From Terriglobia bacterium (lineage in GTDB: Bacteria; Acidobacteriota; Terriglobia; Versatilivoradales; Versatilivoraceae): 64,000 bases of DNA. The stretch lies in the NCBI GenBank assembly GCA_951813285.1, contig OX638355.1, positions 2,373,136-2,437,135 on the forward strand, in the 5' to 3' direction. How positions within the stretch are numbered: the first letter of the stretch is position 1; each line of letters begins with the position of its first letter. The notes under the pieces are model-generated. The model was given only the letters and a program-made list of their open reading frames with translations, searched no databases and was not told the origin of the DNA. Positions 4,131 through 64,000 of this stretch are shown here, one piece after another. The position numbers and the translations under genes are program-made.

Positions 4131-4146
4131 CAAGAAAGCCGGCTAG

Positions 4147-21889: not shown

Positions 21890-22140
21890 GCAGGTGTTTG
21901 GACGCACCCCTGGTTCTTCGACGGGCGACTCATTCAGGGCAATACCGGGGTTGTTTCAGGCAAGCCGGGCCCCCGCCCCCCACGACGGGGCGGATCATTC
22001 GAGGGTAAAACAATCAGAAATCGAAAATCCTTTCGCGACCTTGGAATCCCGTCGCGGTTTACCTCAACGCCTTAGTGTCCCTTCGTCGTTCTTCGTGTCC
22101 CTTCGTGGATTCCTCTTTTTCTTTTGTCTTTATTCGTTTG
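21890..22140 (-). repeat. Partial (leader-only, ~170-250 bp) copy of the R-element family: 'gaaacaaacga(a)aaagacaaaag...ggccactaagg...cactctcgtatgatccgccc'.
   Basis: Reverse complement aligns with 43497-43660 and 50292-50470. Confidence 0.6.
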
Positions 22141-22173
22141 TTTCAGGCAGGCAGGCAAGCAAGCAGGCAGGCG

Positions 22174-28164: not shown

Positions 28165-31100
28165 CTAATCCAGCACCAGCTTCACGCCGGTTTCGAATTG
28201 TCTGTAGTCGGTGAACCGGGTGACGTTTCGAGTGTGGATCCGGGCACTCTGCAGGATGCCGACGGACATGTTGAACTGAGCCCTGATCGGAAGCCAGTGT
28301 TGGTTCTCCCCGATCCGGACCTGGTCGTAGGCGATGCTCACCTCCGAGGTCTTGATGGGGAAATCCTCGGGGAGATCCACCGTCTCCTTGATCAGTTTGA
28401 CCACCTGGTAGGAGTTGACGTCGATCCAGCACAATCCTCGGTAACCCACCCGCAGGGGATTGCCCTGGTAGATCAGTTGAATCGAGGAAGTCTCCTGGGG
28501 AACCCGAAAGGCCACCCGCACCGTCTGATGCCCCGCGAATTCTTCGGCGCCCTCCAGACGGAAAGAGGTTCTGCTCCCGGGAGCGAACACGTTTCGGAGG
28601 GCGGCGGCGTACTCCCCGATGGAATAAGCGCCGTCTTGGCTGACCGACGGCCCTTGCCCCTGGACGGGCTGGTACCTTTCTTCTCCGTTCGAGTACAGGA
28701 GATCCTCCTGGAGCTGGTCCTTTTCCTGCCAACCTCGGAACAGCCGCTCAAATCGGGCTGTCCGGCGGCGACACACGAAATTGGGCAGGTCGTGGGTGTA
28801 GGCATCGATCCTGCGGCGGACGGCTTCCAAAAAATCCGGCCATTCGCTGTCGGTCGGCACCCCGCCGGGCCGGCTGGAGGCGAGAGTTAGCGCTGCGGTG
28901 TCGCTGACGGTAAACTCCTCGGACCCGGTTTCCATCATGAACTCGGGGCGATGGTAGGCAGAGGGGGTCTGGGTGGCCTGCATTTTCCTGGTCTCAGCCT
29001 GTTGGGGATCGAACGGCAATCGAGTGCTCTCGTCGTAGCGGGCTCCTGCAAACCGCGTCTTGCCGATTCTGATGTTGCCGGCAAGGGGAATAAAGAGGTT
29101 GGCCTCCCTTCCTTCGACCAGAGCGGCTCGGGTCAATCTGGCCCCCCGCAGGTCGGCTTTCCTCAGATCGCTGCCGAACAGGACTGCTTCGGACAGGTCG
29201 GCCACCTGCAGATTGGCCCGGCTCAGGCGGGCGTCTTTCAGGACGGCGCCCTGCAGATTGGCGCCCAGCAAGCTGGCGCCCTCCAGGCCGGCTTGGGTCA
29301 GGCTGGCATCAGCCAGCTCGGCCCCGTCCAGTTGTGCGCCGTCCAGCTTGGCCTTGATCAGTTCCGCGCCGGTCAGTTTGGCGCCCCGCAGGTCGGCCCC
29401 TCGCAGATCGGCCTCCCAAAGCTTGGCTTGGGTCAGGTCGGCTCTCAGCAGCACCGCATCCCGGAGGTCGGCCTTCCGCAGGTCCATGCCGCTCAGGTTG
29501 GCTCCAAAGAGATTCTTCCCCTTCAAGTCGTGCGACTGCAGTCGGCTCCCCCGCAAATCGCCGCATTCGCCCCGAAGATCCGGGTTGTACCCGAGCTCTC
29601 CCTGGTCGTTGGCGCAGGCCAGGGTATGGCTGCGAAATCGGTAGGTTTGTAAAGAAGCGGTATGGCCCGAGGAACGTGGAATCTCCAGACTGTCTCTGAT
29701 CTTTTTCAGGTCGAGGCGAACGGCCGGTTCCGGCTCGGACGTATTTTGGGCGCGAGTCTGATCGCCGATGGCCGGTGTCGGCACGACCTCGGGTTCGGCC
29801 GCTGCAGATCCCCGCGTCACCACCAACTCGGTCTCGGAGATGGTGGCACGGCCGCTGGCCGACTCCTCGGTGGTAATCTCGAATCGGTAGTCGCCCGGGC
29901 TCAAGGGTTGGGTGGACAGCTTGAAGCCCACCGCAACCTGTCCCGGCGCCCGCTCTTCCAGGTGGTTCCGGTCCAGCGCGATTGACGGGAAGTCGACGGT
30001 CTCTCCGCTGTCCTTCACTGCCTGGATGTGAGCCGTGAGATTGCCGTCCTGCAGCTTGGAGGCGTTGTAGAGTTTGTAAAACACGGCCAGAGGTCGGGGA
30101 GGGACAATTTTGTTCCTGACCGACGGCTTCACCTGGAACCCACGGTGAAACAGCCAGCGGGTCTCCGGGACCTGCATTCCGGCGACGGCGGGGGAAAAGG
30201 GCTCCAGTTCCTGACTCAGGACCAGGCCGCTGGTCATGAGCACATCCGGGGGAAGGGCCGGAACCCATAGAAGCTGTTCGGCCGTCCCCAATCTGGCGTG
30301 GCGGTCCGCGGCCACCAGCTTGATGCGATACTTGCCCGGCTCCAGCTTGAGAAAACCCTGCACGGCGGATTCCGCCTTCCCGTTTGCCAGCGGGAGGGTC
30401 TGGTCGAAAACCGAAGCCGCCTGCCCGTCGTCAGAGAAGGCAACCCCCATCAGGCGAAGGTCTTTCCCCGGCAACCAGCTCTTTGGGGTATCCCCGTCCG
30501 AATCGTGGGAAACCCTGGCCGAGATCAGGACCAGAGCCCGCTCAGTCTCCTGGTAGAAGAAGTGCGCCTTGAAATCCAAAGCCAGATCGTGCTGTTGCTC
30601 CGATGCCTGCAGTCCCCGGAGCACGGTCCTTTCCAGAGATCCCGCCGTGTCCCGGTCCGACAACAGGGGCACCTCGACGGTTCGGCGCAGAGACCCCAGT
30701 CCGGCGTTGAGGTTCTCGCGTGCCGCAACCTTGACTTGATACCGCCCCGGTGGGACTTTCAGGACGACCTTGGAGGTCAGGCCCGATCGAAGAAGAGCCT
30801 GGTAGCTGCCGTCGCCGAGCTTGAAATCCCAGGCCTTTTCGTCGCCCCCGACGTACTCGTCCTTGGCATCGAAGGCGACTACAGCCAGATTGATTCGATT
30901 GATCCGCTTGCCCTCTTCGATCAGGAAGGGGAGATCCTCAAAGCCCAGGCGGGTCAGGATCTCCAACCGGTAAGTGTCCCCATCCAGGCTGGAGCTGTGG
31001 AAGGACATCTGCAGCGGGATTTCCCTGAGATCGGTGGGCGCCCGCATGGCTTCCAGCATTTCCTTCTTCTTTCGTTCCTCCGGGGACAATCGCTCCTTGG

Positions 31101-32481
31101 GGGCAAAGAAGCCCTTGCGGTGAGTGACTCGGACGCCGGGCCGCAACACTTTCACTCGAAGCCTGTAGTAGCGGCCGTTGGGCTTCTTGGGAGGGGTGGC
31201 GTAGCTCAGGACATAGTAGGAGAACTGCTGATCCACCACCTGTCTCAGACCTGCCACCAAGTCGTTGTTGTCTCTGAAGTAGATTCCTCCCGTAGCCTTG
31301 GCCAAGTACTCCAGGGACATGCCCTTTTGCTTGCGGTCCTCCGAAACCAGCAAGGATTTGTCGAGCCGGAGACCACTGTTATTGGTAAATTCGTCGCTGA
31401 CGTCGTACATCGGGCTGGTTTGCAGCCCGGTGGCCCGGATGGAGTTGAAGATAATGCCGGTCTTCAGCGCCATGTCGACCAGGCGCTCCAGGTCATAGCG
31501 AAGCGCGCGGTGCAGGAAGCCTCCGGAGAGCAGCACCAGAGATTTCTGCGCCTCAACCGGTCCGAGAGAACGGATGTGCGCTCGCAGGACGTCCAGCAAG
31601 CGACGGATGCGGCTCCGTTGTCCGGCTAGGTGCTGGGAAGCCAGGGTCCGCACATAGTTTTCAACGATCTGCTGGGTTGGATCAATGGGACTTCCACCGA
31701 TCCCGGCACCTAGTGTTTGGCCCTGCGGGGCGTCCAGGCCGGCGCCGATCCCGCAGTCTTCGGCTTCGGCCATGGCCACGTCGATGGCCCGGTTTCCCGG
31801 CACGGGCCCAAATACCTCAATCTCTTCCGCCTGAGCATCGGTCAGTGTGACGCATCCGCGCTGGCGCAGCGACTGGGTGAAATCCAGTTTATTGTGGAGT
31901 CGGTCGATCTCTGCCAGCAACAACTCCTTGTCCTGAGTGAAGGGGACGAAATGGCCGCGGGAGGCCGTCATGATGGAGATGTGGTTTTGTTCTTTCAACC
32001 CCCTTTCCACGAATCCGCGAATGGCTTCTACGGTGCGGTTGAGGGTGCCCATCGGGGGATAGGTGAGGTCGTCGATGACCAGGCTCAACAGCCGGGGTTT
32101 GTCGGGGGCCGCCTCCGGGGCCGGTTCCTCCTGGCTGGCCTGGCTGCCCCAGGTCATGGAACTCTGCGGGTTCTGGTAGAATTCCTGGGAGAAAGACTGA
32201 ATGGTCTGCATCTTGCGGTTTTCGAAGACCTCGAAATCGTCCACGGTCAGATCGGTGATGGGGTTGCCGTCCCGGTCGGTGACAATGGTGTTGACCACCA
32301 CCACTTCCACCGGCACCTTGAGGGTGAATCCGGAGGAGGGCTGACCGCGGGCTTTTTCGGTTTTTTCGGGCTTGGCCTCCGCTGTTGCCGGGCTTGGCTC
32401 CAAGGCGGCTGTCAACCAACCGGCAACCATGGTTCCCGCCAGAACGGCGCCAGTGAGAAAGGGCCTTCTGAGAGACATTGT
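28165..32481 (-). CDS. Giant secreted protein. Two VWFA-related Acidobacterial-type modules, a central pentapeptide-repeat block and a C-terminal region.
   Basis: Signal peptide MSLRRPFLTGAVLAGTMVAGWLTAA. 'VVVNTIVTDRDGNPITDLTVDDFEVFEN' VWFA-related motif. ~25 A(D/N)L.G pentapeptide repeats at aa ~985-1110. Confidence 0.8.
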   Translation of the reverse strand, partial: TMSLRRPFLTGAVLAGTMVAGWLTAALEPSPATAEAKPEKTEKARGQPSSGFTLKVPVEVVVVNTIVTDRDGNPITDLTVDDFEVFENRKMQTIQSFSQEFYQNPQSSMTWGSQASQEEPAPEAAPDKPRLLSLVIDDLTYPPMGTLNRTVEAIRGFVERGLKEQNHISIMTASRGHFVPFTQDKELLLAEIDRLHNKLDFTQSLRQRGCVTLTDAQAEEIEVFGPVPGNRAIDVAMAEAEDCGIGAGLDAPQGQTLGAGIGGSPIDPTQQIVENYVRTLASQHLAGQRSRIRRLLDVLRAHIRSLGPVEAQKSLVLLSGGFLHRALRYDLERLVDMALKTGIIFNSIRATGLQTSPMYDVSDEFTNNSGLRLDKSLLVSEDRKQKGMSLEYLAKATGGIYFRDNNDLVAGLRQVVDQQFSYYVLSYATPPKKPNGRYYRLRVKVLRPGVRVTHRKGFFAPKERLSPEERKKKEMLEAMRAPTDLREIPLQMSFHSSSLDGDTYRLEILTRLGFEDLPFLIEEGKRINRINLAVVAFDAKDEYVGGDEKAWDFKLGDGSYQALLRSGLTSKVVLKVPPGRYQVKVAARENLNAGLGSLRRTVEVPLLSDRDTAGSLERTVLRGLQASEQQHDLALDFKAHFFYQETERALVLISARVSHDSDGDTPKSWLPGKDLRLMGVAFSDDGQAASVFDQTLPLANGKAESAVQGFLKLEPGKYRIKLVAADRHARLGTAEQLLWVPALPPDVLMTSGLVLSQELEPFSPAVAGMQVPETRWLFHRGFQVKPSVRNKIVPPRPLAVFYKLYNASKLQDGNLTAHIQAVKDSGETVDFPSIALDRNHLEERAPGQVAVGFKLSTQPLSPGDYRFEITTEESASGRATISETELVVTRGSAAAEPEVVPTPAIGDQTRAQNTSEPEPAVRLDLKKIRDSLEIPRSSGHTASLQTYRFRSHTLACANDQGELGYNPDLRGECGDLRGSRLQSHDLKGKNLFGANLSGMDLRKADLRDAVLLRADLTQAKLWEADLRGADLRGAKLTGAELIKAKLDGAQLDGAELADASLTQAGLEGASLLGANLQGAVLKDARLSRANLQVADLSEAVLFGSDLRKADLRGARLTRAALVEGREANLFIPLAGNIRIGKTRFAGARYDESTRLPFDPQQAETRKMQATQTPSAYHRPEFMMETGSEEFTVSDTAALTLASSRPGGVPTDSEWPDFLEAVRRRIDAYTHDLPNFVCRRRTARFERLFRGWQEKDQLQEDLLYSNGEERYQPVQGQGPSVSQDGAYSIGEYAAALRNVFAPGSRTSFRLEGAEEFAGHQTVRVAFRVPQETSSIQLIYQGNPLRVGYRGLCWIDVNSYQVVKLIKETVDLPEDFPIKTSEVSIAYDQVRIGENQHWLPIRAQFNMSVGILQSARIHTRNVTRFTDYRQFETGVKLVLD

Positions 32482-32945
32482 CGGATCCTGTTTATGGACG
32501 GTTGTAACGGACCGGTAAGAGTAGGCCATTATGGAACGATGGCCCATTGCGGGCAACCTCATTTTGCGCGGCCGTGCGGCTACCTCTGGCTTGACCCTTC
32601 TTCCAGCCCTTTGCTAACATCGCCCGAGGTTGAGCGGAACGGCTGAAACTCAAGCCAGGCAAAGGATTCCGGACACTTCCCGCCTTCAGTGGTGTGCAAT
32701 CATGACCCCGAGTCCGCATTTCTCACCGGGGGGCGTGATGATGGCGCAGGAATTTTTCCCTCAGCGCCTGCTCGCGAGCGAAGAGCGTAGCGGTCACTAC
32801 GTTCGAGCGAGCATGTGCACGCTGAGGGGAAAAGGACAAGCCAGGGCACGCCCAGCGCAGCCTGGTTCAGCATGCCCTCAAGACAGCACCCATATAGCCC
32901 TGAAAATCAATATCTTTCCTGATGCGTCCAGCGACTCGGTGAGAA

Positions 32946-37662: not shown

Positions 37663-38050
37663 AATGAAAATCCTCCCGCGTCGGTTTTCGAGATTCCTAG
37701 GCGTTTCCGGTTTCCAAAAGCCCTGATCCTTATCGCGGCAATCGGAAGTCTTCACGTAGTTTGGCTACATCGATACTTTCCCAGCACTTCTGTGTCAAGA
37801 AGTCAACAAACACACTTACGCGGTAAAGCTGGCTAGGCAATGGATCACGATCAGTCACTATGTACCCCACAAAATTACAGGGACGCACAAGGCGTCCCTG
37901 GGGTCATAATAAACCGGACACTCGTTTTGCCCTTTTCGGGAGATGGTCCGGCGGATCTTATAAGCGCAATTAAGTCATAAGGGACGTTACTTGGCAACTT
38001 GTTTTTGGCTTCCTGCTCAGCGACCCTTCAGTTGCCACAAGAAGGGCCAT

Positions 38051-38350
38051 GAGATAAGAGCGAGCCTTTTGCAAAATTCGGAGTCGGGCGATCTTTATCC
38101 AGATCGAGGGTTGTTCCTTCCGAGTCCGTCAAGGAACAGGTGTCACTGAACCCTTTTGCCGTCTGAAGCTCAATGGCCACAAAAGGCACAAAAAACACAA
38201 AAGGAACCATCCGATCGGCAAGACTCGAAACAAGAAACAAGAGACTCGTTTTGTGACTCTTGTGCTTTTTGTGGTGAATGCCGGAGTCCGCAGCACACCA
38301 CCTTTTGCCGCTTCAATGTCATTCCCGATTGCGAATTTTGCAAAGGGATC
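38051..38350. mobile_element. ~300-bp MITE bounded by the same TIRs as the IS at 8959-10445 (GAGCCTTTTGCAAAATTCG...CGAATTTTGCAAAGGGATC), with no transposase.
   Basis: TIRs at 38051-38069 and 38332-38350. A further solo TIR with ~200 bp of similarity is at 50880-51085. Confidence 0.55.
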
Positions 38351-38432
38351 GAGCTCTAGTTAATTACCCCTTTGACTGTTGCGGAGGTAAAGCAGTGACT
38401 ATTTCTGAGAAAGAAGAACAGCTATTCAAGAA

Positions 38433-42446: not shown

Positions 42447-43496
42447 ATGTTCGAGACCATCGCATGGAGCGACGAAGGCGTGGTCATGATCGACCAGCGG
42501 AAGTTGCCGGCGGTCGAAGAGTACCCGGTGTTCAAGACCTACCAGGAAGTGGCGCAGGCAATCAGGGACATGGTCATTCGAGGCGCGCCGGCGATTGGAG
42601 TCGCCGCTGCCATGGGAGTGGCGCTGGGGGCCGAGTCCGTCAAGTCCCATGAGCCGGAGCGGTTTGACCAGGAGTTTCAAGCCATATGCGGGACTCTGGC
42701 GGCGACCCGGCCCACGGCAGTGAATTTGTTCTGGGCCATCGAACGGATGAAGGGGGTCTACCGGCGGAAAAGGTCCCAGGGGCCGCTGGCCGTGGCTGCC
42801 GCCCTCAAGGCGGAGGCCCTGAGCATCCACGACGAGGATATTCGACTCAACCGGCGCATGGGGAGCCACGGGGCCGGTCTTATCCAGGACGGATCCCGGA
42901 TTCTGACCCATTGCAATGCCGGCGCCCTGGCGACCGCCGGCTACGGCACGGCTCTGGGAGTCATTCGGGCCGCGGTGGAGCAGGGCAAGAGAGTGGAGGT
43001 GCTGGCGGATGAGACGCGGCCTTTCCTGCAGGGAGCCCGCTTAACCGTTTGGGAGTTGCAGAAGGACAATATCCCGGTCACCCTGATCACCGACAACATG
43101 GCGGGGTATTACATGAAAGAGGGCCAGGTGGACTGCGTCGTCGTTGGAGCCGACAGGATCGCAGCCAACGGAGACGTCGCCAACAAGATCGGCACCTATT
43201 CGGTCGCCGTGCTGGCCCGGGAGCACGAGATCCCCTTCTACGTGGCGGCGCCCCTCTCGACGGTCGACCTGGACGTTTCCACGGGCGACGAGATCCCCAT
43301 CGAGCAGCGCTCCCCGCGAGAAGTGACCCACCTGGGCGAAAGGGCCATTGCTCCTCAGGGAGCCCCCGCCGGAAACCCCGCCTTTGACGTGACCCCTCAC
43401 CGCTACGTGGCGGCCATCATCACCGACGCCGGAGTTGCCCGGCCTCCCTTTCTGGAGAATCTGAGAGCTCTGAAAGACCGGGGAGGTCTTACCTGA
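42447..43496 (+). CDS. mtnA: S-methyl-5-thioribose-1-phosphate isomerase (eIF-2B alpha/beta/delta family).
   Basis: '[21 protein letters not shown]...[14 protein letters not shown]...TDNMAGY...[13 protein letters not shown]'. Confidence 0.85.
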
Positions 43497-44205
43497 AACA
43501 AACGAAAAAAGACAAAAGAAAAAAGAGCTATCCACGAAGGGCCACTAAGAACGACGAAGGGCCACTAAGGCGTTGAGGTTAACCGCGACGGGATGCCAAG
43601 GTCGCGAAGGGATTTTCGATTTCTGATTGTTTCACTCTCGTATGATCCGCCCGGTACGGCGGGGGCTGGGCTCGCGGACAAACCGGAGTTTTCCAGAAGG
43701 CGACCGTCGGCTTTCAGAGAATTCGCCCGCCGGATGCCCTCCATCGCACCATCGGGACGACCCACCCGGGAGCGCGGGCGTCTCGCCCGCACAGGACTTG
43801 GCACCATTGTAACGATCCCCACAATGGCCGGTTTGGTGCACTGTGCGAGGAAGTGGCCCTGCATCGCAGGCTGTTTGCACCAATAAGGTTGCGGGCGGGA
43901 CGCCCGCGCTCCCGGGGGGGCATTCTCCCATGACGCCGTGATACCCACGTCACAATATTGCAGAAGCACCCGGGCGCCGCTCGTCATTGAAGGAGCTCCA
44001 TCCCTAATCGTCCCCATTCGTGTTCATTGGTGGTTCGTCTTCATTGCCAAAACGAAAACGGCTGGCTGTTTATCCTGTCTATCCTGTACATCCATGTTCA
44101 ATAAGTAGAAAACCGGTTTTGCACGACAGGGCCCTTGTTCCCGACAGGGCATGAAGATGCGTTGTTTCACTCTCGTATGATCCGCCCGGCAGGGTGGGGG
44201 TTGGA
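43497..44205 (+). repeat. Full copy of a composite non-coding element. Order: leader L (43497-43625), 37-bp repeat A (43625-43660), R body with a long hairpin, inverted P repeat (44040-44150), second A (44165-44205).
   Basis: About 95% identical to 50292-50740 and to the reverse complement of 63480-63840. 'gtttcactctcgtatgatccgcccgg.a.gg.ggggg' occurs at both ends. Confidence 0.7.
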
Positions 44206-44228
44206 CTCGCTATTTCCCCGGGGAATGC

Positions 44229-50291: not shown

Positions 50292-50870
50292 CTTACTTGA
50301 AACAAACGAAAAAAGACAAAAGAAAAAAAGAAAAAAGAGGAATCCACGAAGGGCCACTAAGGACGACGAAGGGCCACTAAGGCGTTGAGGTGAACCGCGA
50401 CGGGATACCACGGTCGCGAAGGGATGATCGATTTCCGATAGTTTCACTCTCGTATGATCCGCCCGGTACGGCGGGGGCTGGGCTCGCGGACAAACCGGAG
50501 TTTTCCAGAAGGCGACCGTCGGCTTTCAGAGAATTCGCCCGCCGGATGCCCTCCATCGCACCATTGGGACGACCCACCCGGGAGCGCGGGCGTCTCGCCC
50601 GCACAGGACTTGGCACCATTGTAACGATCCCCACAATGGCCGGTTTGGTGTACTGTGCGAGGAAGTGGCCCTGCATCGCAGGCTGTTTGCACCAATAAGG
50701 TTGCGGGCGGGACGCCCGCGCTCCCGGGTGGCATTCTCCCATGACGCCGTGACACCAACCTCACAATATTGCAGAAGCACCCGGGCGCCGCTCGTCATTG
50801 AAGGAGCTCCATCCCTATTCGCCCCCATTCGTGTTCATTGGTGGTTCGTCTTCATTGAGAAACGACCAAG
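50292..50870 (+). repeat. Second copy of the L+A+R composite element (lacks the P arm), inserted immediately after the tatC stop.
   Basis: About 95% identity to 43497-44040. Confidence 0.7.
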
Positions 50871-51140
50871 GCATGCGGGCTTTGTGTGATCAGATCCGCC
50901 AGACGGCCTTCGACCTGCATGGAACTCTTCGTATCGGGCATCTCGAGAAGGCATACGATAAATTCGTTTTGTGCTTTTTGTGGTTAGACAGCATTTTTCA
51001 CCAAGTCGCACCCGATATTGAAAAAGGCAGAACATCGCGTTTGCCGGCAAAATGACCTGCCCCGTTGCGAATTTTGCAAAAGGCTCCAGAGACAATCGGC
51101 TGTTTTTCCTCTGAAGGAGCCGCCCGCCCCGTGACCTGCC

Positions 51141-52535
51141 GTGGCCGACTCCTCCAGCACAGATCGGACGTCTTTTCGAACCCGCGTCAAGGGCAAGCCG
51201 ATCTTCAGGCGCCACCTCTTTATCAGCTCCGCTCTCTTTCTGGTGGTGATCGGGGCCATCGCCTTTTCGCTGATCGATTTGGCCAACCGCTGGGCAAGCG
51301 AGCGGGTGGAGCTTGTAATGGAGGCATTGCGCGACGATTTACAGGATCGGATCGAAAATCAAATCCGTCTTCTCGATCTGGAGCTGCCGGGCGCCGATCC
51401 TGCCGATGAACTTCGCCGCCGGCACCACATGGAAGGGTTTCTGGAGGAGTTGTTGGCCGGCAACGACCAGGTCGTCTACGTTTTTGCCCAGCATCCCCGG
51501 GGAGATCTGCTTTGGCGCCGCTTGCAGATGGGAAGGGAACTGGAACAGAGCCACTTTCCGGATCTCATTCTGTCCTCCAGGGCAAGGCAGGAAATCGCTT
51601 CGGTCAGCAGTCCCGGGAAGCGCATCACCGACTGGGTCGAACCGGTGGTATCCGAGGGTCAAGTGAGGCTGCTTATCCATTTCGGTTTCGACAACACCCT
51701 GATTGCCGGCCGGGTGGCTGAAGACCAGATCCGGATCAACCGGCAGATTCTGATGGCCTCCTCGGTGGTGCTGGCGCTACTGCTGGTGGCCTTGTTTTAT
51801 GTGCTCTGGCTGCTCAAGCGAGCCCAGCTGATCGAGGCCGAAGCACACACGGCCGACCGGCTGGCAGTGCTGGGGACGCTGGCCAGCGGATTGGCCCATG
51901 AGATCCGGAACCCTTTGAGCGCCATCAACCTGAATCTGCAGATGATCGAAGAGGAAGTTTCCGAGTCTCCTACGTATTCCGGAGAGATGGCCCAACTACT
52001 GGCCGGGGCCAAGTCCGAGATTCGGCGGTTGGAGCGGTTGGCGCGCAATTTCCTGGTGTACGCCAAACCCTTGAAGCTGGATCGACAGGTGGTTTCGCTG
52101 CCCCAGGTCCTGGATCAGGTGGTCCAGCTTGTGGCCAAGGAATGTGACAGAGCAGGAATCGAGCTGGTGAGGCAGGATGGACCGGGGGTGCTGGAGGTTC
52201 GGGGAGACCGCGACTTGTTGCAGCAGGCCTTGATGAACCTGTTGGTCAATGCCAGGGAATCGGTCCTGGCCAGTGGGGATGGACCGCGCCGAATCTCAAT
52301 GGGGGCCAGGCGGGAGTCGTCGGGCCGTTTGGCGGTGTGGGTTCGCGATAGCGGTACCGGAGTCTCGGAGGAGGAATCCGGCCGGCTCTTTGACCTCTTT
52401 TATTCGAGTAAGCGCGGCGGGACGGGTTTGGGCCTGCCCATAGCCCAACGGATCGTGGAAGCCCACGGCGGGCGGCTGGAATGGAAGAATTGTGATGGTG
52501 GAGGGTCGGAGTTTTCGATGCGCTTCGACCTCTGA
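51141..52535 (+). CDS. Sensor histidine kinase (membrane anchor, HisKA, HATPase_c).
   Basis: H-box 'LASGLAHEIRNPLSAI', N-box 'LMNLLVNARES', G-box 'GTGLGLPIAQRIVEAHGG'. Confidence 0.8.
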   Translation: MADSSSTDRTSFRTRVKGKPIFRRHLFISSALFLVVIGAIAFSLIDLANRWASERVELVMEALRDDLQDRIENQIRLLDLELPGADPADELRRRHHMEGFLEELLAGNDQVVYVFAQHPRGDLLWRRLQMGRELEQSHFPDLILSSRARQEIASVSSPGKRITDWVEPVVSEGQVRLLIHFGFDNTLIAGRVAEDQIRINRQILMASSVVLALLLVALFYVLWLLKRAQLIEAEAHTADRLAVLGTLASGLAHEIRNPLSAINLNLQMIEEEVSESPTYSGEMAQLLAGAKSEIRRLERLARNFLVYAKPLKLDRQVVSLPQVLDQVVQLVAKECDRAGIELVRQDGPGVLEVRGDRDLLQQALMNLLVNARESVLASGDGPRRISMGARRESSGRLAVWVRDSGTGVSEEESGRLFDLFYSSKRGGTGLGLPIAQRIVEAHGGRLEWKNCDGGGSEFSMRFDL

Positions 52536-56691: not shown

Positions 56692-57591
56692 TCAGCCATC
56701 CAGTTTTCTCCCGGTGAGGCGCTCGAAAGCATCCATGTACTTTCGGCTGGTTGCCTCCACGACCCAGTCGGGCAGCTCGGGCGCGGGGGGCTTCTTGTCC
56801 CACTGAATTTCTTCCAGGTAGTTCCGTACGAACTGCTTGTCGAAGGGCTGCTGGGGTTTTCCGGGCTGGTAGTCGGAAGCCAGCCAGAACCGCGAAGAGT
56901 CCGGAGTCAGGACCTCGTCGATCAGAATGATGTCGCCCTGGTAGGTGCCGAACTCGAACTTGGTGTCGGCGATGATGAAGCCCTTGGAAGCCGCGTAATC
57001 GCGAGCCTTGCAGTAGATATCCAAACTGATATCACGAAGGCGCTCCGCCGTGTCCTGCCCGACCAGGTCCACCATCCGCTCAAAGGAGATATTTTCGTCG
57101 TGACCAGTGGTGGCCTTGGTGGCGGGAGTAAAGAGAGGTTCCTCCAGACGGGCCGATTCGGGCAGTCCGGCCGGCAGCCCGATGCCGCAGACCGACCGGG
57201 ACTGCCGGTACTCCTTCCAGCCCGATCCGGCCAGGTAACCCCTGACCACGCATTCCACCGGAAAGACCTCCGATTTCTTCACCAGCATGGATCGTCCGGC
57301 CAGCACCCGGGCATAGGGCTGAAGATCGGCTGGGAACTCCTCGACCCTGGCGGTCACCAGGTGGTGGGGAACGATTTCGCCGATGCGCTCGAACCAGAAG
57401 AGCGACATCTGGGTCAGGATACTTCCCTTGTTGGGAATGCCGCTGGCCAGCACGTAGTCGAAGGCGGAAATTCTGTCGGTGGCGATGATTAGCAGGTGGT
57501 CCCCAATCTCGTAAATGTCACGGACCTTGCCTCTGCCGACCAGATGATGATCGGGTAAATTCACCTCGGTTTGCAGGCTCTCTTCGGCCAT
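56692..57591 (-). CDS. purC: Phosphoribosylaminoimidazole-succinocarboxamide synthase.
   Basis: 'GKVRDIYEIGDHLLIIATDRISAFDYVL'. Confidence 0.9.
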   Translation of the reverse strand: MAEESLQTEVNLPDHHLVGRGKVRDIYEIGDHLLIIATDRISAFDYVLASGIPNKGSILTQMSLFWFERIGEIVPHHLVTARVEEFPADLQPYARVLAGRSMLVKKSEVFPVECVVRGYLAGSGWKEYRQSRSVCGIGLPAGLPESARLEEPLFTPATKATTGHDENISFERMVDLVGQDTAERLRDISLDIYCKARDYAASKGFIIADTKFEFGTYQGDIILIDEVLTPDSSRFWLASDYQPGKPQQPFDKQFVRNYLEEIQWDKKPPAPELPDWVVEATSRKYMDAFERLTGRKLDG

Positions 57592-57807
57592 GGGATTGCA
57601 CGCTCTCCTTTCGTTTGGGAGTGTCAGGCGGGTATAGGGGGGAGACCCTTGAACCAGCCCGTGGCTTTCGGCTTGCCCGGATTTTTCCAGCAGAAGGTGG
57701 CCATTCTAGTACAACGGGGACGCTTGTCAAGACCCATGTGAAAACCCTGTCCATAGCGTCTGAAAACCCGGGTGGAACCCATGGCAGGACGGCCGGCGGC
57801 AGGGGAA

Positions 57808-60800
57808 TCAGTTCATCCGGACCGAGACCAGTTTGGACACGCCGGCCTCTTCCATGGTCACTCCGAAGAGGGCGTCAGCCGCCTCCATGGTCCGCTTGCT
57901 GTGGGTGATGAGCACGAATTGGGTCTCACCGCTCATGGACTTGATCTTCTGGGAGTAACGCCCCAGGTTGACGTCGTCCAGCGGAGCGTCTACTTCGTCC
58001 AGGACGCAAAAGGGGCTGGGTTGGTAGCTGAATATGGCCAGCAGGAGGGCGATGGCGGTCAAGGCCTTTTCGCCTCCCGAGAGCAGCAGCACATTCTGCA
58101 ATCGTTTCCCCGGAGGCTGGGCCACGATTTCGATCCCCGTCTCCAGAGGATCCTGAGGATCCAGCAATTTCATTTCGCCCCGTCCGCCGCCGAACAGCTC
58201 CCGAAAGCTTTCCCTGAAGTTCAGGTTCACCGCATCGAAGGCTTGCTGAAACTGCTCGCAGGAAACCTCATCGATCTCGCGGATGGCAGTGCTGGTGTCC
58301 TCTATGGAATCGAGCAGGTCCTGACGTTGCCGGTTGAGGAAATCGAACCGTTGCTCGCATTCCTGGAATTCCTCCAGGGCCATCATGTTGACCGGTCCCA
58401 TGGAATCCAGGCGGTTCCTGAGGCGGAGGTATCGTTCCTCCGATTGCCGATAGTCTTCCTGGTTGAATTCGCCGGCCTCCTCCACCTGAAGCGATTCCAG
58501 GGTTTCCCCCAGCTCCTGGCGGCAGGATTCCTCCAGATGGGAGTGGTCGGAGGCGAGTCTGGCCCGCTCGACCTCGGTTTGCGTCCTACGGTTCCGTAGC
58601 TCGTCCAGTTCCAGACGCCACCCTTGCAGCTCTTCTTCCAGTTGTGCCTGGACCCTTCGGGACGCCTCCATCCGACCTTCCCCGATCCGGATCTCCGCCT
58701 CCAGAGAAGCGCGTTTGACGGCTCGATTGAAGACGGTCTTTTCCAGTTGTCGAACCGAGGTCTGGATCTCCAGGCTCTGGGCGGTCCACTCCTCTCGCTG
58801 GGCGTTCAGCCTGGTCCCGCGTTGGAGGCAATCTTGCAGGCTGGCTTGAACCCGTTCCCGGTCGGCCTCGGTAGCGAGCTTGCGCTCGCCGCATGCGGCC
58901 AGCTCCGAGCCCACCTGGCTGAGCTGCTGCGAATGGTGCAGCCATTCGTCCCTCAAGCGCCGCCAGTCGGCCTGAATCGAGTCGATGGACTGGTCCACCT
59001 CCGTCTTGCGTGCTGCGGCCCGCGTGATTTCCGATCGGGATTGGAGGAGGCGCTGGTCGATTTCCGACCGCTCTTGAGCCAGGTTCCGGATTTCCCCGGA
59101 GACTTCCCGCTCCCTATGGCTGAGGCGTTCGAGCTCGCCGGCGAGGGTCTCGAGTCGGTGGTTGGAGCCTACCAGCTCCTTTTCCAGTTCCTGCACCTGC
59201 CGGTTCACCCGGGTCAGCTCCTGCTCACGGGCTTGCACCGACCGATCCAGGTCCTGGAACCGTTCGTCCAGCAACAGCAGGTCCCGGCGGGCCGATTCGA
59301 GCCGCCGGTCCAGTTCGCGGATCTCTCGCTTCAGGGAGAGGTGCCCGCGCTGGTCACCGCTGCCGCCGGAAATGAGCTGCCCTCGAAACGCCTCGCCCTG
59401 CGGCGTCAGCACCGTCAACTTCGGATGGGCTTGAGCGATCTCCAGGGCTGCCTGATAGCCGGGGGCAATGAGGCTGTGGAACAGATGGGGGAGGGCGGAG
59501 CGAAGCCCCTGGCGATGGCGGGGCGGCACACGGATGACGCGGCTCATCGGAATGAGCCGCGGGTCTCGAGCCGCCAGATCCTGGATCAGGACGTCAAGGG
59601 TGTCGGCGGCCGGGTCGGAGGCGCCGTTGCCGGCGACCAGAAAGGTGGATCGGCCGGAGCCGCTCTTGCGCAGCAGATCGATGCCTTCCCGCGCATTGGA
59701 CGTAGAATCGACCAAGAGAAATTCGAGCTCCTGACGCACAAACTGTTCCACGGTCCGCTCGTGCTCGGTGTCCACCTCCACCAGATCGGCCAGGATCCCG
59801 TGGGTCCGAAACTCGGCCCCCCGGGACCGGTCGGCCACCGACAAGAGTGTCCGCACCGATTCGGCACTGTAGGCATGGTGCGCAGCCAGTTCCTTCAGGG
59901 ACTGGAGCCTTTGATCCTGCGCACTGAGCTCTTCCCGCTTCTCGGCCACCTTCTGCCGGGCTCGAACCAGCTGCTCCCGTTCCCGGTTGACTTCAACCGA
60001 GAGTGCTTCGACCCTGCCGGCCAACTCACGCAGCCGCGTTTCCTCCCGGGTGTGCCGGCTGCCGGCGCTTTCGCGGGTGTCCGCCAGGTTCCGGCGATCT
60101 CGGGATGCCTGTTTGTGTTCGTTTTCCAGGCGAACGGATTGCAAGCCCAGCTGCTTTTCGTGCTCCTCCAACTGGATGACGGCGCTGCCAAGGGTGGTCG
60201 CTCGACCCAGTAATTCCAGTTGTTCCGACCGCAGCCGGTCTCCCGAGACTTCCAGTTCGCCCAGCTTGTTCTGCCGTAGTTCCTGTTCCCGATTGCGGGC
60301 GTCGTACTGTTCCTCCAGCCTGTCGAACTGCCGGGTCACCTCCTGGAGGGACTGCCGATGTTCGCGGGCTTGCACCTGGTATTGCTCCTCCTGCTCCTTG
60401 AGCAGCTGGAGCTCCAGGGCATTTTCGCGAGACCGGACTCCCAGTTGGTCGAACCGGTCTTTCTGATGCTGAATCGTTTGCTGGTCCCTCTGGTTTTCCA
60501 TCTGCAACCGGGACAACTGTTCGCGTTGCCCTTTCAAGGCGGTCTCGGCCTCGAAGAGGGCGTCGTTTTCCCGACGAAAATGGGCTTCCCGCTCGTCGAT
60601 GAAGCGCTGTTTCCGATCGACCTGGTCCTGGAATTGCTCGAATTTTTCCGATACCTGGCTCAACTGGGCCTTCAGACGACGGGCCCGGGCGGAGAACAGG
60701 CTTCTGGAGAGATTCCGGGCTTCCAGGCTGAGCTCCCGGTAACGGCGGGCCTTGGCAGCCTGACGCTTGAGAGCATCCAACTGGCGGGAAACCTCCTCGG

Positions 60801-61572
60801 TGATATCGTTGACACGGAGCAGGTTCTGCCTGGCCTGCTCCAGCTTCGAGGCGGCCAGCTTGCGCTTGACCTTGAATTTGGTGACCCCCGCCGCCTCCTC
60901 GATGATGGCCCGTCGATCCGAGGGTTTGGAGCTGAGGATCAGGCCGACCCGGTCCTGCTCGATCAGCGCATAGGAATCCGGCCCCAGTCCGGTTCCCAGG
61001 AACACTTCCTGAACGTCCCGCAGTCGGACCCTCCGTCCGTCGAGCAGGTACTCGCTCTCTCCCGAACGAAAAAGGCGCCGGGATACCACCAGCTCACCCG
61101 GTTTGGCCGGCGTCTTGGTTCGCCTTCTCTTCCTTTTTCTGGAATCTGAGACCGGTTTGACCTCAAAGGGAGCAGGCCGGACGGAACCTTCGATTCTTGC
61201 CTCACCCTTGGGCATGGAGCCGTCGCGGCCGGCTTCCCGGTCATCGCCGGCCGGAGCCGCCTGGGGGGAGGAGGCGGCGGTTGAAAGCACTTGCTCGGCC
61301 CTCTCCGGATCGAACAGAACCACGCTGACCTCGGCCAGCCCCAGGGGCAGCCGGGAGCGGGTACCGTTGAAAATGACGTCCTGCATTCGCCCGCCGCGGA
61401 GGGTCCGGGCGCTCTGCTCCCCCAATACCCAGGCGATGGCATCCGAGATGTTGCTCTTGCCGCAGCCGTTGGGTCCCACAATGGCTGCTATGCCGGATCC
61501 GTCAAAGGTCAGTTCGGTTTTGTCGGCGAAGGATTTGAATCCTTGAATCTGAATTTGCTTCAGTTTCAGCAA
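57808..61572 (-). CDS. smc: Chromosome partition protein SMC.
   Basis: 1254 aa. Walker A 'GPNGCGKSNISDAIAWVLGEQS', long coiled coils, C-terminal 'LSGGEKALTAIALLLAIF' signature and Walker B. Confidence 0.95.
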   Translation of the reverse strand: MLKLKQIQIQGFKSFADKTELTFDGSGIAAIVGPNGCGKSNISDAIAWVLGEQSARTLRGGRMQDVIFNGTRSRLPLGLAEVSVVLFDPERAEQVLSTAASSPQAAPAGDDREAGRDGSMPKGEARIEGSVRPAPFEVKPVSDSRKRKRRRTKTPAKPGELVVSRRLFRSGESEYLLDGRRVRLRDVQEVFLGTGLGPDSYALIEQDRVGLILSSKPSDRRAIIEEAAGVTKFKVKRKLAASKLEQARQNLLRVNDITEEVSRQLDALKRQAAKARRYRELSLEARNLSRSLFSARARRLKAQLSQVSEKFEQFQDQVDRKQRFIDEREAHFRRENDALFEAETALKGQREQLSRLQMENQRDQQTIQHQKDRFDQLGVRSRENALELQLLKEQEEQYQVQAREHRQSLQEVTRQFDRLEEQYDARNREQELRQNKLGELEVSGDRLRSEQLELLGRATTLGSAVIQLEEHEKQLGLQSVRLENEHKQASRDRRNLADTRESAGSRHTREETRLRELAGRVEALSVEVNREREQLVRARQKVAEKREELSAQDQRLQSLKELAAHHAYSAESVRTLLSVADRSRGAEFRTHGILADLVEVDTEHERTVEQFVRQELEFLLVDSTSNAREGIDLLRKSGSGRSTFLVAGNGASDPAADTLDVLIQDLAARDPRLIPMSRVIRVPPRHRQGLRSALPHLFHSLIAPGYQAALEIAQAHPKLTVLTPQGEAFRGQLISGGSGDQRGHLSLKREIRELDRRLESARRDLLLLDERFQDLDRSVQAREQELTRVNRQVQELEKELVGSNHRLETLAGELERLSHREREVSGEIRNLAQERSEIDQRLLQSRSEITRAAARKTEVDQSIDSIQADWRRLRDEWLHHSQQLSQVGSELAACGERKLATEADRERVQASLQDCLQRGTRLNAQREEWTAQSLEIQTSVRQLEKTVFNRAVKRASLEAEIRIGEGRMEASRRVQAQLEEELQGWRLELDELRNRRTQTEVERARLASDHSHLEESCRQELGETLESLQVEEAGEFNQEDYRQSEERYLRLRNRLDSMGPVNMMALEEFQECEQRFDFLNRQRQDLLDSIEDTSTAIREIDEVSCEQFQQAFDAVNLNFRESFRELFGGGRGEMKLLDPQDPLETGIEIVAQPPGKRLQNVLLLSGGEKALTAIALLLAIFSYQPSPFCVLDEVDAPLDDVNLGRYSQKIKSMSGETQFVLITHSKRTMEAADALFGVTMEEAGVSKLVSVRMN

Positions 61573-61833
61573 TAGGAAGGCACCCTCAATGGCTTACCGG
61601 CAACTGCAGCCATTGGATGTGACGGGGTCGAGAAAAGGTAGGGTCTCATGCTGACCCGGCGAGTGTAACACGGATCCGCAACCAGTGCAAAGCACCCTGG
61701 AAAAGACTCGCCTGTATTGACTTATCGGTGAACGGCGGTCTATTCTAGCCGCGGAAACGGACCTGGGACGAGGTCGTGACCGGGCAGGCCTGCGCCGCCG
61801 CCGGGCTGCGACGGCTCGACGGAGATTTCACCC

Positions 61834-63225
61834 ATGCTGCGGCTTTCCAACACCCTTTCCGGGAGGGTCGAGCCCTTTCGACCGCTGGAGCCCCACCAGG
61901 CGAAAATGTACACCTGCGGCCCGACGGTGTACGACTTTGTCCACATCGGAAACCTGAGGACCTTCGTCTTCCAGGACGTTCTGAAGCGCTATCTGCGGCA
62001 CAAGGGCTTTCGGGTCTTTCACGTCATGAACATCACCGACGTCGACGACAAGACTATCCGGAATTCGGAGGCGCAGACCATCGCTCAGCTCAGAACGTTT
62101 ACGGACCATTTTACCCGGGCCTTTTTCGAGGACTGCGACCGGCTGGGCATCGAGAAACCCGATCGGGCCGTTCATGCGACCGATCACATCGATGACATGG
62201 TGTCTCTGATCCGGCAACTGCAGTCCGGAGGCTACACCTACGAGAAAGACGGCTCGATCTATTTCCGGATTGAAGCCTTCGGGGACTACGGGAAGCTGGC
62301 CAAGCTCGACTGGGAGGGAATCCAGGTGGGCGCCCGGGTGGATGTGGACGAATACGACAAGCAGGATGCGCGGGACTTCGTCTTGTGGAAGGCTCCCAAG
62401 AACGGGGAACCTCGCTGGGAGACCCCCCTGGGTCCCGGTCGGCCTGGATGGCACATCGAATGTTCAGCCATGAGCATGAAATATCTGGGTGAAACCTTCG
62501 ACCTGCATTGCGGCGCGGTGGATCTCATCTTTCCCCACCACGAGAACGAGATTGCTCAAAGCGAGGCCGCCACCGCCAAGCCGTTCGTGCGCTACTGGGT
62601 CCACGGGGAGCATCTCATCGTGGACGGCGAGAAGATGTCCAAGTCCAAGGGCAACTTCTTCACCCTCCGGGACCTGCTGGAGAAAGGGATCCAGCCCGGG
62701 GCCATCCGCTACGCTTTGCAGAGCGTTCCCTATAAGCGTCAACTCAACTTCACCATGGATGCGGTACAGCAAGCCGGGGCCTCGCTCCAGCGGCTGCAGG
62801 ACTTCAAGCATCGGATCGAGACCGAGTCATTGCCGAGGGGCGCCAGTCCCGAACTCCAGTCAGGCTGCAAGGCGGTTGTGGAGAAGTTCGAGGAAGCCAT
62901 GGATCAGGACCTCAACACGGCCCAGGCCCTGGCGGCCATCTTCGACTGGGTCCGTGAGGTCAACACCGCCCTGGCTGCGGGCCGGGTCCATGACGGCGAC
63001 AGCTCCGCGATTCTGGCCACCATGGAAACGCTCAACCGGGTCCTGCCGCTGTGGGAGTCCGGGGAATCCGGTCTGGACCCCCAAATTCAAGGCCTGATCG
63101 AGCAGCGCAGCCGGGCGCGGCAGGCCCGAGACTTCGCCCTGGCGGATGAGCTCCGCGACCGGATTTTCGACCTGGGCTACCTGGTCGAAGACACCAGGGA
63201 AGGCGTCCGCTGGAAGAAACGATAG
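61834..63225 (+). CDS. cysS: Cysteine--tRNA ligase.
   Basis: 'MYTCGPTVYDFVHIGNLR', KMSKS 'KMSKSKGN'. Confidence 0.95.
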   Translation: MLRLSNTLSGRVEPFRPLEPHQAKMYTCGPTVYDFVHIGNLRTFVFQDVLKRYLRHKGFRVFHVMNITDVDDKTIRNSEAQTIAQLRTFTDHFTRAFFEDCDRLGIEKPDRAVHATDHIDDMVSLIRQLQSGGYTYEKDGSIYFRIEAFGDYGKLAKLDWEGIQVGARVDVDEYDKQDARDFVLWKAPKNGEPRWETPLGPGRPGWHIECSAMSMKYLGETFDLHCGAVDLIFPHHENEIAQSEAATAKPFVRYWVHGEHLIVDGEKMSKSKGNFFTLRDLLEKGIQPGAIRYALQSVPYKRQLNFTMDAVQQAGASLQRLQDFKHRIETESLPRGASPELQSGCKAVVEKFEEAMDQDLNTAQALAAIFDWVREVNTALAAGRVHDGDSSAILATMETLNRVLPLWESGESGLDPQIQGLIEQRSRARQARDFALADELRDRIFDLGYLVEDTREGVRWKKR

Positions 63226-63282
63226 GACCGGTCCGGCCGCAGGCCGGCAACGCCCCGCCCCAGGCGACGGAGCGGATCATAC

Positions 63283-63950
63283 AGGGTGAAACAGGGGTGT
63301 TCCTGACAAGTTCCGCCCCCGCCGTACCGGGCGGATCATACGAGAGTGGAACTAACGAATCTTCATGTCCTATCGGGAATAAGAGCCATGTCTTGCTAAA
63401 CCGGTTTTCTACTAATTGAACATGGATGTACAGGATAGACAGGATAAACAGCCAGCCGTTTTGGTTTTGGAAATGAAGACGAACCACCAATGAACACGAA
63501 CGGGCCCGAATAGGGATGGAGTTCCTTCAATGACGAGCGGCGCCCAGGTGCTTCTGCAATATTGTGACGTGGGTGTCACGGCGTCAGGGGAGAATGCCCC
63601 CCCGGGAGCGCGGGCGTCCCGCCCGCAACCTTATTGGTGCAAACAGCCTGCGATGCAGGGCCACTTCCTCGCACAGTGCACCAGACCCGCCATTGTGGGG
63701 ATCGTTACAATGGTGCCAAGTCGTGTGCGGGCGAGACGCCCGCGCTCCCGGGTGGGTCGTCCCGATGGTGCGATGGAGGGCATCCGGCGGGCGAATTCTC
63801 TGAAAGCCGACGGTCGCCTTCTGGAAAACTCCCGTTTGTCCGCGAGCCCAGCCCCACAGCCGCCAAGGCGGCGGTAGCACTTAGCCGTGGGCGTCAGCCG
63901 GGCGAAGCCATTGGATCGGGTTGGCTTAAGAGTTGAGCCGCGTAGGCGGC
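63283..63950 (-). repeat. Inverted copy of the composite element, in the order A', P, R body (63480-63840) and an inverted Q repeat (63855-63950). The L leader is missing.
   Basis: Reverse complement of 63480-63840 aligns with 43660-44040. 63365-63465 is a P copy. 63855-63950 is a Q copy. Confidence 0.7.
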
Positions 63951-64000
63951 GACAGCAGCCATCCGTGAGCGTGAGCGGTTTCCAGGATAAGATAGCAGGG

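Follow-up and report, generated by a model that had tools for sequence, protein, structure and literature searches.

A mosaic of intergenic repeats in an acidobacterium and the probable descent of its R element from a REP-RAYT-REP unit

Do near-identical non-coding blocks between the core genes of a bacterium represent a transposon that moved recently, a family of structured RNA genes, or something else? The question was raised by a 64-kb stretch of the genome of a Terriglobia bacterium of the family Versatilivoraceae (contig OX638355.1, positions 2,373,136 to 2,437,135), hereafter the window, in which an earlier note, made from the letters of the sequence, had described a recently active family of non-autonomous elements of 600-700 bp composed of modules L, A, R and P. 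Copies A to D are the copies in the window, and numbers preceded by L (e.g. L001) denote numbered related or metagenome loci. Here we report that copies A to D are differing nestings of at least five non-coding interspersed repeats, which are independent of one another and specific to the lineage. The window is probably best read as a mosaic of nested repeats in a Candidatus Versatilivorator-like acidobacterium, in which the R body is a non-autonomous internal-deletion derivative of a gene for a REP-associated tyrosine transposase (RAYT) flanked by two repetitive extragenic palindromic (REP) sequences; it would thus be REPIN-like, with an unusually long spacer. RAYT is a Y1/HUH enzyme of the IS200/IS605 superfamily. 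REPINs are REP doublets that go with RAYT transposases (Bertels and Rainey 2011, PMC3116915, PMC3337134).

REP arms of R and the sequence between them

The near-identical copies that the earlier note had placed after mtnA, tatC and, inverted, cysS are real. Their 380-nt R bodies were 97-98% identical by blastn (97.6% between copies A and B, 96.8% between A and C). Positions 43662-44168 matched 63349-63855 in inverted orientation over 507 nt with 95% identity, and the same region gave direct matches of 94% to 50309-50608 and 50723-50862. The long internal hairpin was also recovered, its 26-nt arms being found in all three R copies, and folding predicted a stem between them. Each arm is a REP with an internal 7-bp palindrome, GCGGGCG-TC(C/T)-CGCCCGC (GGGAGCGCGGGCGTC(C/T)CGCCCGC), which was invariant in 34 non-redundant copies. 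Inverted arm pairs were present in all three window copies and about 110 times in related loci, with the arms spaced 100-250 nt apart.

Between the arms, most relatives have a loop of 152 nt, as against 98 nt in the window copies. No nucleotide similarity was found between the window loop and the majority loop in either orientation, the scores lying within the range of shuffled sequences. Pattern scans found no match to an internal 23-mer of the window-type loop in genome contigs, nor to a 30-mer in metagenome contigs. Exact queries with the MtnA and thioesterase sequences of the window gave no match either, which places the genome of origin outside the collections scanned. In the majority loop, the strand opposite R reads ...LGARASRP HQAWHSLGHLPHLDQPGTAPWLSFGLADAVPADRV and aligns to the N-terminus of RAYT; 21 of 35 residues are identical to RAYT P0235 in an ungapped alignment outside the REP-coded residues, with tblastn E values down to 1e-7. 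The window loop encodes PTMAGLVHCARKW, which matches the C-terminal NPVxAGLV..W motif of RAYT (PVKAGLVQCAEQW in P0191). Its best score against 120 RAYTs was 49, which none of 300 shuffles reached, and its matches are colinear, at the correct distance from the RAYT C-terminus and in frame with the peptide GRDARAP that ends real RAYTs. These alignments indicate that the R loops are relics of RAYT genes, N-terminal in the majority type and an N- and C-terminal fusion in the window type. The core of R accordingly reads as REP-ΔRAYT-REP, apparently formed by two different internal deletions that lie in opposite orientations in the two subfamilies. An inversion switch, in which the window loop would be the majority loop flipped, was rejected, since the loops are unrelated at the nucleotide level and correspond to different parts of RAYT at the protein level.

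The same REP borders intact transposase genes in metagenomes. The exact 23-nt arm GGGAGCGCGGGCGTCCCGCCCGC was found at at least 120 metagenome loci, which together held 212 arm copies at up to two mismatches, most close pairs being inverted doublets 20-120 nt apart. The REP overlaps both ends of an intact Y1/HUH transposase gene in L144 (371-1051), L148 (1451-2398) and L241 (4001-4702), and in L123 (1208-1864) it overlaps the one gene end that lies inside a short contig. The proteins of L144, L123 and L148 scored 82.8-86.9 bits against the NCBIfam model NF047646, 'REP-associated tyrosine transposase' (cut-off 80), and well above their scores with NF033573, which assigns them to the RAYT branch and not to IS200 or IS605 TnpA. 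The L123 protein also matched PDB 4ER8, the structure of E. coli TnpA-REP. Among 6624 homologues, those named by their source were called RayT, 'transposase' or 'putative DNA methylase'. In L241 the 5' end of the RAYT gene is partially duplicated twice in tandem just upstream of the gene (3650-4000), each duplicate beginning with a REP, and two further REP copies lie past the stop codon of the gene. The duplications imply that units of a REP plus an N-terminal relic arise beside a live gene.

A search for autonomous copies, in which the hairpin would enclose a gene or R would have one next to it, found none: arm pairs are only 100-250 nt apart, and no ORF (open reading frame) family recurs beside R. 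Protein coding by R itself, or by a small ORF in it, was rejected too. Long frames on both strands follow from the high GC content, and no conserved start was seen. The 150-aa ORF at 43565-44017 had no Pfam match, and GC at its three codon positions was equal (GC1 = GC2 = GC3, about 0.62), whereas real genes had a GC3 of 0.74-0.81 and a GC2 of 0.39-0.47. Substitutions among 32 diverged R copies showed no three-base periodicity (p = 0.69-0.83).

Modules of the mosaic and their gene context

The modules that make up copies A to D are listed in Table 1. They are also found separately, in other orders and in tandem, so the single 600-700-bp element of the earlier note falls away. R copies occur singly or in tandem with H between them, and in nearly all family members R3/A' leads straight into H, similarity stopping at ...CTTRCCTGAA. 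Compact members of about 190 nt with the layout L-A-spacer-A'-H were found in L037, L042 and L051. The L module opens with CTTRCCTGAAAC, followed by an A-rich stretch, and its terminus is shared by copy B (50292), copy D (22149, minus strand) and the three compact members. Arrays of CACGAAGnnn units are present in relatives as well. The nesting of P in H was deduced by comparison with copies without P, e.g. L063 and L021; further P copies lie at 3914-3997 and 63354-63470, and L005 holds a P-type miniature inverted-repeat transposable element (MITE) with terminal inverted repeats.

Table 1. Positions of the repeat copies and their modules in the window (loci outside it are named)
Feature	Position	Strand	Description
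Copy A	43488-44228	+	after mtnA; layout [L-A-hairpin-H][R-A'-(P)-H]
Copy A, L module	43488-43531	+	CTTACCTGAAAC core and A-rich leader
Copy A, A array	43532-43571	+	four 10-bp-phased CACGAAGGGC/CACTAAGnnn units; pattern matches at 43533 and 43553
Copy A, small hairpin	43584-43606	+	CGCGAC-N11-GTCGCG between A array and H, read from the sequence; kept in copies B and D
Copy A, H copy 1	43627-43676	+	holds the 37-mer; GC hairpin CCGCC..GGCGG, conserved 5' TTTCACTCTCGTATGATC; 59.6 bits
Copy A, R5 flank	43677-43764	+	5' flank of R; aligned with 33 non-redundant copies from relatives
Copy A, left REP	43765-43790	+	5' hairpin arm; palindrome GCGGGCG-TCT-CGCCCGC
Copy A, putative relic (loop)	43791-43890	+	N-terminal HRTWHH..DPH fused to C-terminal motif PTMAGLVHCARKW; frame runs into REP-coded GRDARAP
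Copy A, right REP	43891-43916	+	3' hairpin arm
Copy A, R3 flank	43917-44046	+	ends in A' array (44016-44042) of inverted 10-bp-phased TTCGTG repeats
Copy A, P module	44072-44162	+	MITE-like fragment inside the 5' part of the next H, between duplicated (T)GTTT
Copy A, H copy 2	44162-44211	+	R's own 3' terminal H; 58.1 bits (covariance model)
Copy A, tail	44212-44228	+	reaches the stop codon of the thioesterase gene; homologous to the L117 insertion at its right junction
Copy B	50292-51154	+	after tatC; layout of copy A, save that a different repeat of 240 nt precedes a degenerate H
Copy B, front	50292-50488	+	L, A array 50345-50384, small hairpin, H 50439-50488
Copy B, R body	50489-50857	+	REPs 50577-50602 and 50703-50728; putative relic 50603-50702; A' 50827-50853
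Copy B, nested repeat	50858-51099	+	unrelated TTTTGCAAAAGGCTC-family repeat between A' and H; same sequence in L068
Copy B, terminal H	51100-51154	+	degenerate; 14.9 bits, E = 0.008 (covariance model)
Copy C	63246-63899	-	by cysS; layout [Acido-Lenti-1-like][R-A'-(P)-H-H]
Copy C, 5' cap	63856-63899	-	Acido-Lenti-1-like repeat in the place of H
Copy C, R body	63472-63855	-	REPs 63727-63752 and 63601-63626; putative relic 63627-63726; A' 63475-63501
Copy C, 3' part	63246-63470	-	P 63354-63470, H 63305-63354, second degenerate H 63246-63294
Copy D	21953-22149	-	after SLT transglycosylase gene; complete short unit L-A-small hairpin-H, no R; H 76.7 bits
Phased arrays	43532-43571, 44016-44042, 50345-50384, 50827-50853, 63475-63501; L004 15990-16060, 16385-16410		short tandem arrays of phased units
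TTTTGCAAAAGGCTC/GAGCCTTTTGCAAAATTCG family	8945-9015, 10399-10448, 38048-38089, 38304-38353, 50858-51099		copy of about 240 nt nested in copy B

H is an independent motif of 55-65 nt. A covariance model found seven strong copies and one weak copy in the window; over the 848 kb searched (the window and 99 related loci) it gave 271 matches. Of the hairpin cells of H, 83% were paired, with one compensated pair. The metagenome loci selected by the REP gave a single match to H, which implies that the REP is widespread and that only the Versatilivorator-like lineage has H, L/A and the flanks of R. The 37-mer GTTTCACTCTCGTATGATCCGCCCGGTACGGCGGGGG, which was held to flank R+P at both ends of each copy, occurs at 43629, 44164, 50441 and 63352 (minus strand), that is, at four sites with up to three mismatches where none is expected. 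It flanks both sides in copy A only. In copy B it stands upstream, the downstream stand-in being the degenerate terminal H, which a further inserted repeat separates from R by 240 nt; in copy C it stands downstream, and the upstream side of R is joined to Acido-Lenti-1-like sequence. The 37-mer belongs to H and is not a terminal repeat specific to the element. H was also compared with recombination sites. Integron cassettes, which usually contain an ORF, are delimited by attC sites, and these combine R''/R' core sites (RYYYAAC...GTTRRRY) with an imperfect palindrome of extended length. An attC was rejected, as H starts with GTTTCAC (by eye) and not with GTTRRRY, its palindrome has a stem of only 5-7 bp and there is no ORF; a Xer/dif-like site was rejected since no dyad symmetry was seen in H.

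The neighbouring genes encode MtnA (IF-2B family), TatC, CysS and an SLT transglycosylase. The L module of copy A takes in the stop codon of mtnA (43494-43496), copy B begins 14 nt past the tatC stop codon, and copy C ends 21 nt from that of cysS. The degenerate H of copy B overlaps the start of a histidine-kinase gene. The partial copy noted after the lytic transglycosylase gene is present, past the stop codon, as copy D: the first 132 nt of copy A recur there (22142-22012) with 92% identity by blastn.

Helically phased arrays flank H and R in inverted orientation, with 10-bp CACGAAGnnn units and, in relatives, 7-bp ATAGTGA/CACTAAT units as well; from their sequence they look like arrays of protein-binding sites. 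The first unit is often TTATCCAC, which bears a resemblance, and no more, to a DnaA box, and the TTATCCAC/CACGAAGG repeats also resemble CsrA-sponge arrays. The further repeat family marked by TTTTGCAAAAGGCTC and GAGCCTTTTGCAAAATTCG often goes with phased CTTTTGTGC units; L068, which carries the sequence nested in copy B, is a locus of a sponge-symbiont metagenome-assembled genome (MAG). Acido-Lenti-1 (RF01687) has four copies in the window, with Rfam hits at 4083-4128 and 5896-5941 and divergent copies at 6059-6129 and 63829-63899. In one Versatilivorator genome a 700-nt insertion (L046 2490-3194), not present in a 95%-identical relative, holds at least one Acido-Lenti-1 above the Rfam gathering score and two similar stretches by eye. 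These observations suggest that the Rfam 'sRNA' Acido-Lenti-1 acts here as one more interspersed repeat module.

An IS5/IS1182-like insertion sequence lies at about 4142-5729 (ORF 4222-5544, plus strand; DUF772, DDE_Tnp_1 and DDE_Tnp_1_6), in the middle of a mosaic with P (3914-3997), Acido-Lenti-1 on both sides and H (5745-5794). A tyrosine integrase at 20456-21710 (minus strand) is split into Arm-DNA-bind_3 plus Phage_int_M (20937-21710) and Phage_integrase (20456-20962), and is probably a frameshifted pseudogene; L003 has an integrase of 410 aa, intact and located elsewhere in the genome, to which it is 91-92% identical in nucleotide sequence. A link of the modules to this integrase was rejected, given that it is frameshifted beside copy D and that none of the modules lies close to the intact L003 orthologue. 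No tRNA gene was found in the window. Two large ORFs are unrelated to the repeats: that at 12190-15735 (plus strand) has 342-bp tandem units (14648-15557) and irregularly spaced repeats of about 77 nt, and that at 28165-32562 (minus strand) repeats with a period of 15 nt, as is typical of pentapeptide-repeat proteins, with an L117/L119 orthologue that matches Pentapeptide models in Pfam.

Distribution, insertion sites and age

The family is not confined to the window. A genome scan with the conserved R 3' end GAAGAYGAACCACNAATGRACACGAA found more than 110 related loci in Candidatus Versatilivorator, Versatilivoraceae and other Acidobacteriota MAGs, and in one genome this pattern marked at least 37 separate 8-kb loci. 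L077 and L092, both on a 45.8-kb contig (CBDCBK010000008.1) binned as Acidimicrobiia, also have R and H copies typical of Versatilivorator; the contig is probably a mis-binned acidobacterial one.

Comparison with relatives bore out the view that these are non-autonomous, non-coding repeats inserted in intergenic gaps between core genes, as the sites at mtnA and tatC are empty in relatives. In L001 (about 88% nucleotide identity) the mtnA and thioesterase genes overlap and the gap between tatC and the kinase gene is 92 bp; relative to it, the window has 741 extra bases at the mtnA site and 836 at the tatC site. The mtnA site is also empty in L003 and L119, and the tatC site in L117 and L119. 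The insertion at mtnA has replaced the C-terminus of the protein: MtnA of the window ends in ...LKDRGGLT, its last three codons and stop coming from the CTTACCTGA of the element (43476-43496), as against ...LKAGAELSPDLRSP and a 26-bp overlap with the convergent thioesterase gene in L001 (11020-11068). In L051 the upstream frame, read by eye, likewise stops at the TGA of the element. Convergent genes that overlap or abut in relatives stand about 730 bp apart in the window. None of this implies a cellular function, and the visible effects are incidental. The supposed preference for gene 3' ends was not borne out: 50 clusters comprised 25 between tandem genes (15 co-oriented and 10 anti-oriented with them), 14 between convergent and 11 between divergent genes, a count that uses crude gene calls and that shows no preference for the sense strand either.

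Positions 57004-64000 of the window are 94% identical to Candidatus Versatilivorator sp. OZ242296, in which copy C has an orthologue (its R body at L108 1185-1568). R is 96.1% identical between the two, as against 90-92% at third codon positions and 95.4% in another intergenic stretch. At the mtnA site of L117 there is a 166-nt insertion with the same left and right junctions as in the window and different content, which implies that the array at this site was built stepwise. The description 'recently active' was therefore overstated, since copy C is orthologous, the mtnA insertion is shared and the paralogues, at 97-98%, are barely closer than the orthologue.

Changes on a finer scale were seen at three sites. 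At cysS the window has one H unit more than L108, where the first H of copy C is missing. Between an S41 protease gene and tatA, assemblies of a single species that are about 99% identical (L003, L004, L005, L006 and L109; e.g. L004 15954-16990) have one or two tandem units of about 470 nt; at this site one assembly also has a DUF772 transposase remnant and another an R copy without REP cores. At one orthologous site the R copies belong to different subfamilies and are 78% identical, within flanks that are 96% identical.

Origin and affinities of R

How might R have arisen and spread? We envisage that internal deletion stripped a REP-RAYT-REP unit of most of its transposase gene, which would have left the R core, and that a RAYT would then have spread the copies in trans by acting on REP hairpins in single-stranded form, the mechanism proposed for REPINs. 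Instead of this, or in addition to it, R may have been carried within an R5-REP-relic-REP-R3-A'-H unit by the mover of H-terminated units, and recombination between the numerous copies of H and REP would later have reshaped the arrays. We consider more tentatively, and with some doubt, that R represents an intermediate in the birth of REPINs, REP-RAYT-REP having been deleted at least twice independently (to a 152-nt N-terminal relic and, in the opposite orientation, a 98-nt relic of both termini) and each product amplified.

Several observations weigh against descent from REP-RAYT-REP and spread by RAYT. Searches of the window and of related loci amounting to about 0.9 Mb turned up neither an intact RAYT nor any transposase or ORF family that recurs beside R copies. 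The window relic is 98 nt long, and its assignment comes from a 13-residue motif, its frame and its colinearity. In Versatilivorator loci the REP doublet always comes with the same R5 and R3 flanks, in a sample biased by the R3 pattern with which the loci were picked, and this suggests that what was amplified is a unit larger than a REPIN; L001, at a site empty in the window and L117, has a shorter unit that retains about 30-40 nt of either flank. Copy C and the mtnA insertion are old, and the copies may be fossils that change only by recombination.

That last point leads to an explanation which we regard as unlikely, namely that the copies are inert, with no present transposition, and change only via homologous recombination, gene conversion and tandem duplication or deletion between H or REP copies. 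Much of the turnover fits it: copy C and the insertion at mtnA are older than the species splits, changes at the strain level are in tandem copy number, replacement of the R subfamily at an orthologous site agrees with gene conversion, the L109 copy without REP cores looks like a hairpin deletion, and a transposase partner is missing from the loci surveyed. Yet at least 37 loci in one genome require some past transposition-like process, copies A and B stand at sites empty in other relatives, and these two (97.6%) are slightly closer to each other than copy C is to its orthologue (96.1%). It concerns present activity only and is compatible with an origin from REP and RAYT.

Recent movement of the whole L+A+R+P block by a DDE transposase, as a MITE-like transposon of about 600-700 bp, would account for the near-identical copies and the empty sites, and an IS5/IS1182-like DDE element is at hand in the window. 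The inverted repeats of that element (TAGGAGTCTGCGCCGCAG), however, are unrelated to L, A, H, R or P. The ends of the units (CTTRCCTGAAAC... and ...GGGGGCCGGACTTRCCTGAA) or of R showed no terminal inverted repeats, the similarity there being direct and not inverted. As to target-site duplications, a possible 7-bp CCGGGGA surrounds copy A, none could be defined at copy B, and none emerged for a different small insertion, P-like, when L069 was set beside L022, where the site is empty. The four copies differ in module sets and ends, relatives have modules alone or otherwise combined, P and the 240-nt block of copy B are nested secondary insertions, and the L117 junctions speak for a stepwise build. 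We hold movement as one unit to be very unlikely. Hardly any likelihood remains, in our judgement, for R as genes of a large structured non-coding RNA, with the hairpin part of its fold and H a processing or terminator hairpin. The stem is indeed very stable (z = -3.37 against shuffles on the minus strand), one of its pairs shows a CG to UA exchange in 12 of 34 copies, and orthologous R is more conserved than third codon positions; other intergenic DNA, at 95.4%, is however equally conserved. RNAalifold on the 34 non-redundant copies gave a covariation term of only -1.42 kcal/mol, with arms that are invariant and do not covary. Rfam held no family matching R in the window or in 17 related loci, its only family there being Acido-Lenti-1, elsewhere in the window and in 3 of the 17, while HEARO and the IS605-orfB RNAs gave no match, and the best sub-threshold match on the element (MIR807, 26 bits against a gathering score of 113) is meaningless. 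The loop of 100-150 nt is swapped wholesale between subfamilies and reads as a transposase relic, and the copies, of which a genome has tens, often in tandem, face either way with respect to the genes next to them. These results dispose of the RNA gene family that the earlier note had offered as an alternative. IS110 bridge RNA, TnpB/IscB omega-RNA, group II introns and retrons were rejected for want of an Rfam signal and an associated gene.

R belongs with the REP/RAYT (HUH tyrosine transposase) repeats, and not with DDE-type MITEs or RNA genes. REPIN/RAYT is the closest known system. Classical REPIN/RAYT systems are known from Pseudomonas and Enterobacteria, the host here being an acidobacterium. 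R shares with REPINs the short imperfect palindromic REPs, two of them inverted and forming a long hairpin, and it is extragenic, multi-copy and non-coding; the same REP stands at the ends of genes on metagenomic contigs that pass a curated RAYT model. Closely spaced inverted REP doublets are the REPIN arrangement (PMC3337134). The spacer of R, in contrast, is 98-152 nt of apparent RAYT coding relic instead of a short anonymous spacer, and exceeds the start-to-start distance of 20-120 nt usual among metagenome doublets of this REP; in this lineage the doublet has always been seen with flanks of about 100 nt (R5) and 130 nt (R3) plus A' and H.

Other repeats are alike in part. The bacterial interspersed mosaic elements (BIMEs) of E. 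coli, described by Gilson, Bachellier, Hofnung and colleagues, are also intergenic clusters of a REP-type palindrome with other short motifs in variable order and number and with strain-variable copy number. The likeness is one of organisation, without sequence homology; modules here are larger (H 55-65 nt, L/A about 130 nt, R 380-450 nt), and the window mosaics add 10-bp-phased arrays and a putative transposase relic. We know of no proteins, such as IHF, gyrase or Pol I, that bind the window modules. Palindrome-associated transposable elements (PATEs) of the IS200/IS605 kind are, like MITEs, non-autonomous internal-deletion derivatives that have lost most of the transposase gene and kept the end structures, as R appears to be. 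R also shares with PATEs hairpin ends in place of the terminal inverted repeats on which a DDE enzyme acts. R differs from PATEs and MITEs in having no established target-site duplication, tetra- or pentanucleotide target or cleavage sites, and in a relic that would come from the RAYT branch. BOX of Streptococcus pneumoniae (boxA-boxB(n)-boxC), Correia and ERIC are modular intergenic repeats, non-coding and with strong hairpin potential. They have no sequence relation to the window repeats and have defined, ordered module sets, whereas order and content in the window are far more variable.

For annotation, such mosaics yield long spurious ORFs, among them the 150-aa frame at 43565-44017 and the peptides 'GARASRP', 'GRDARAP' and 'GGTPALP', and they probably break short-read assemblies; most recovered RAYT contigs were only about 1 kb long. 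They also rewrite gene ends, the last codons and stop of MtnA being encoded by the element. Descent of REP doublets from palindromes on either side of an ancestral IS200-like transposase gene is an open question in the REPIN literature (PMC3337134), and REP doublets that still hold putative RAYT relics offer a natural example of a REPIN-like origin via internal deletion. If R is indeed an intermediate in the birth of REPINs, it would be direct sequence evidence for such a descent, and RAYT-type elements in Acidobacteriota would act like ordinary insertion sequences that spawn MITE-like offspring. The repeat DNA of the window is of an ordinary bacterial kind, yet it is a clear showcase of how such repeats arise.

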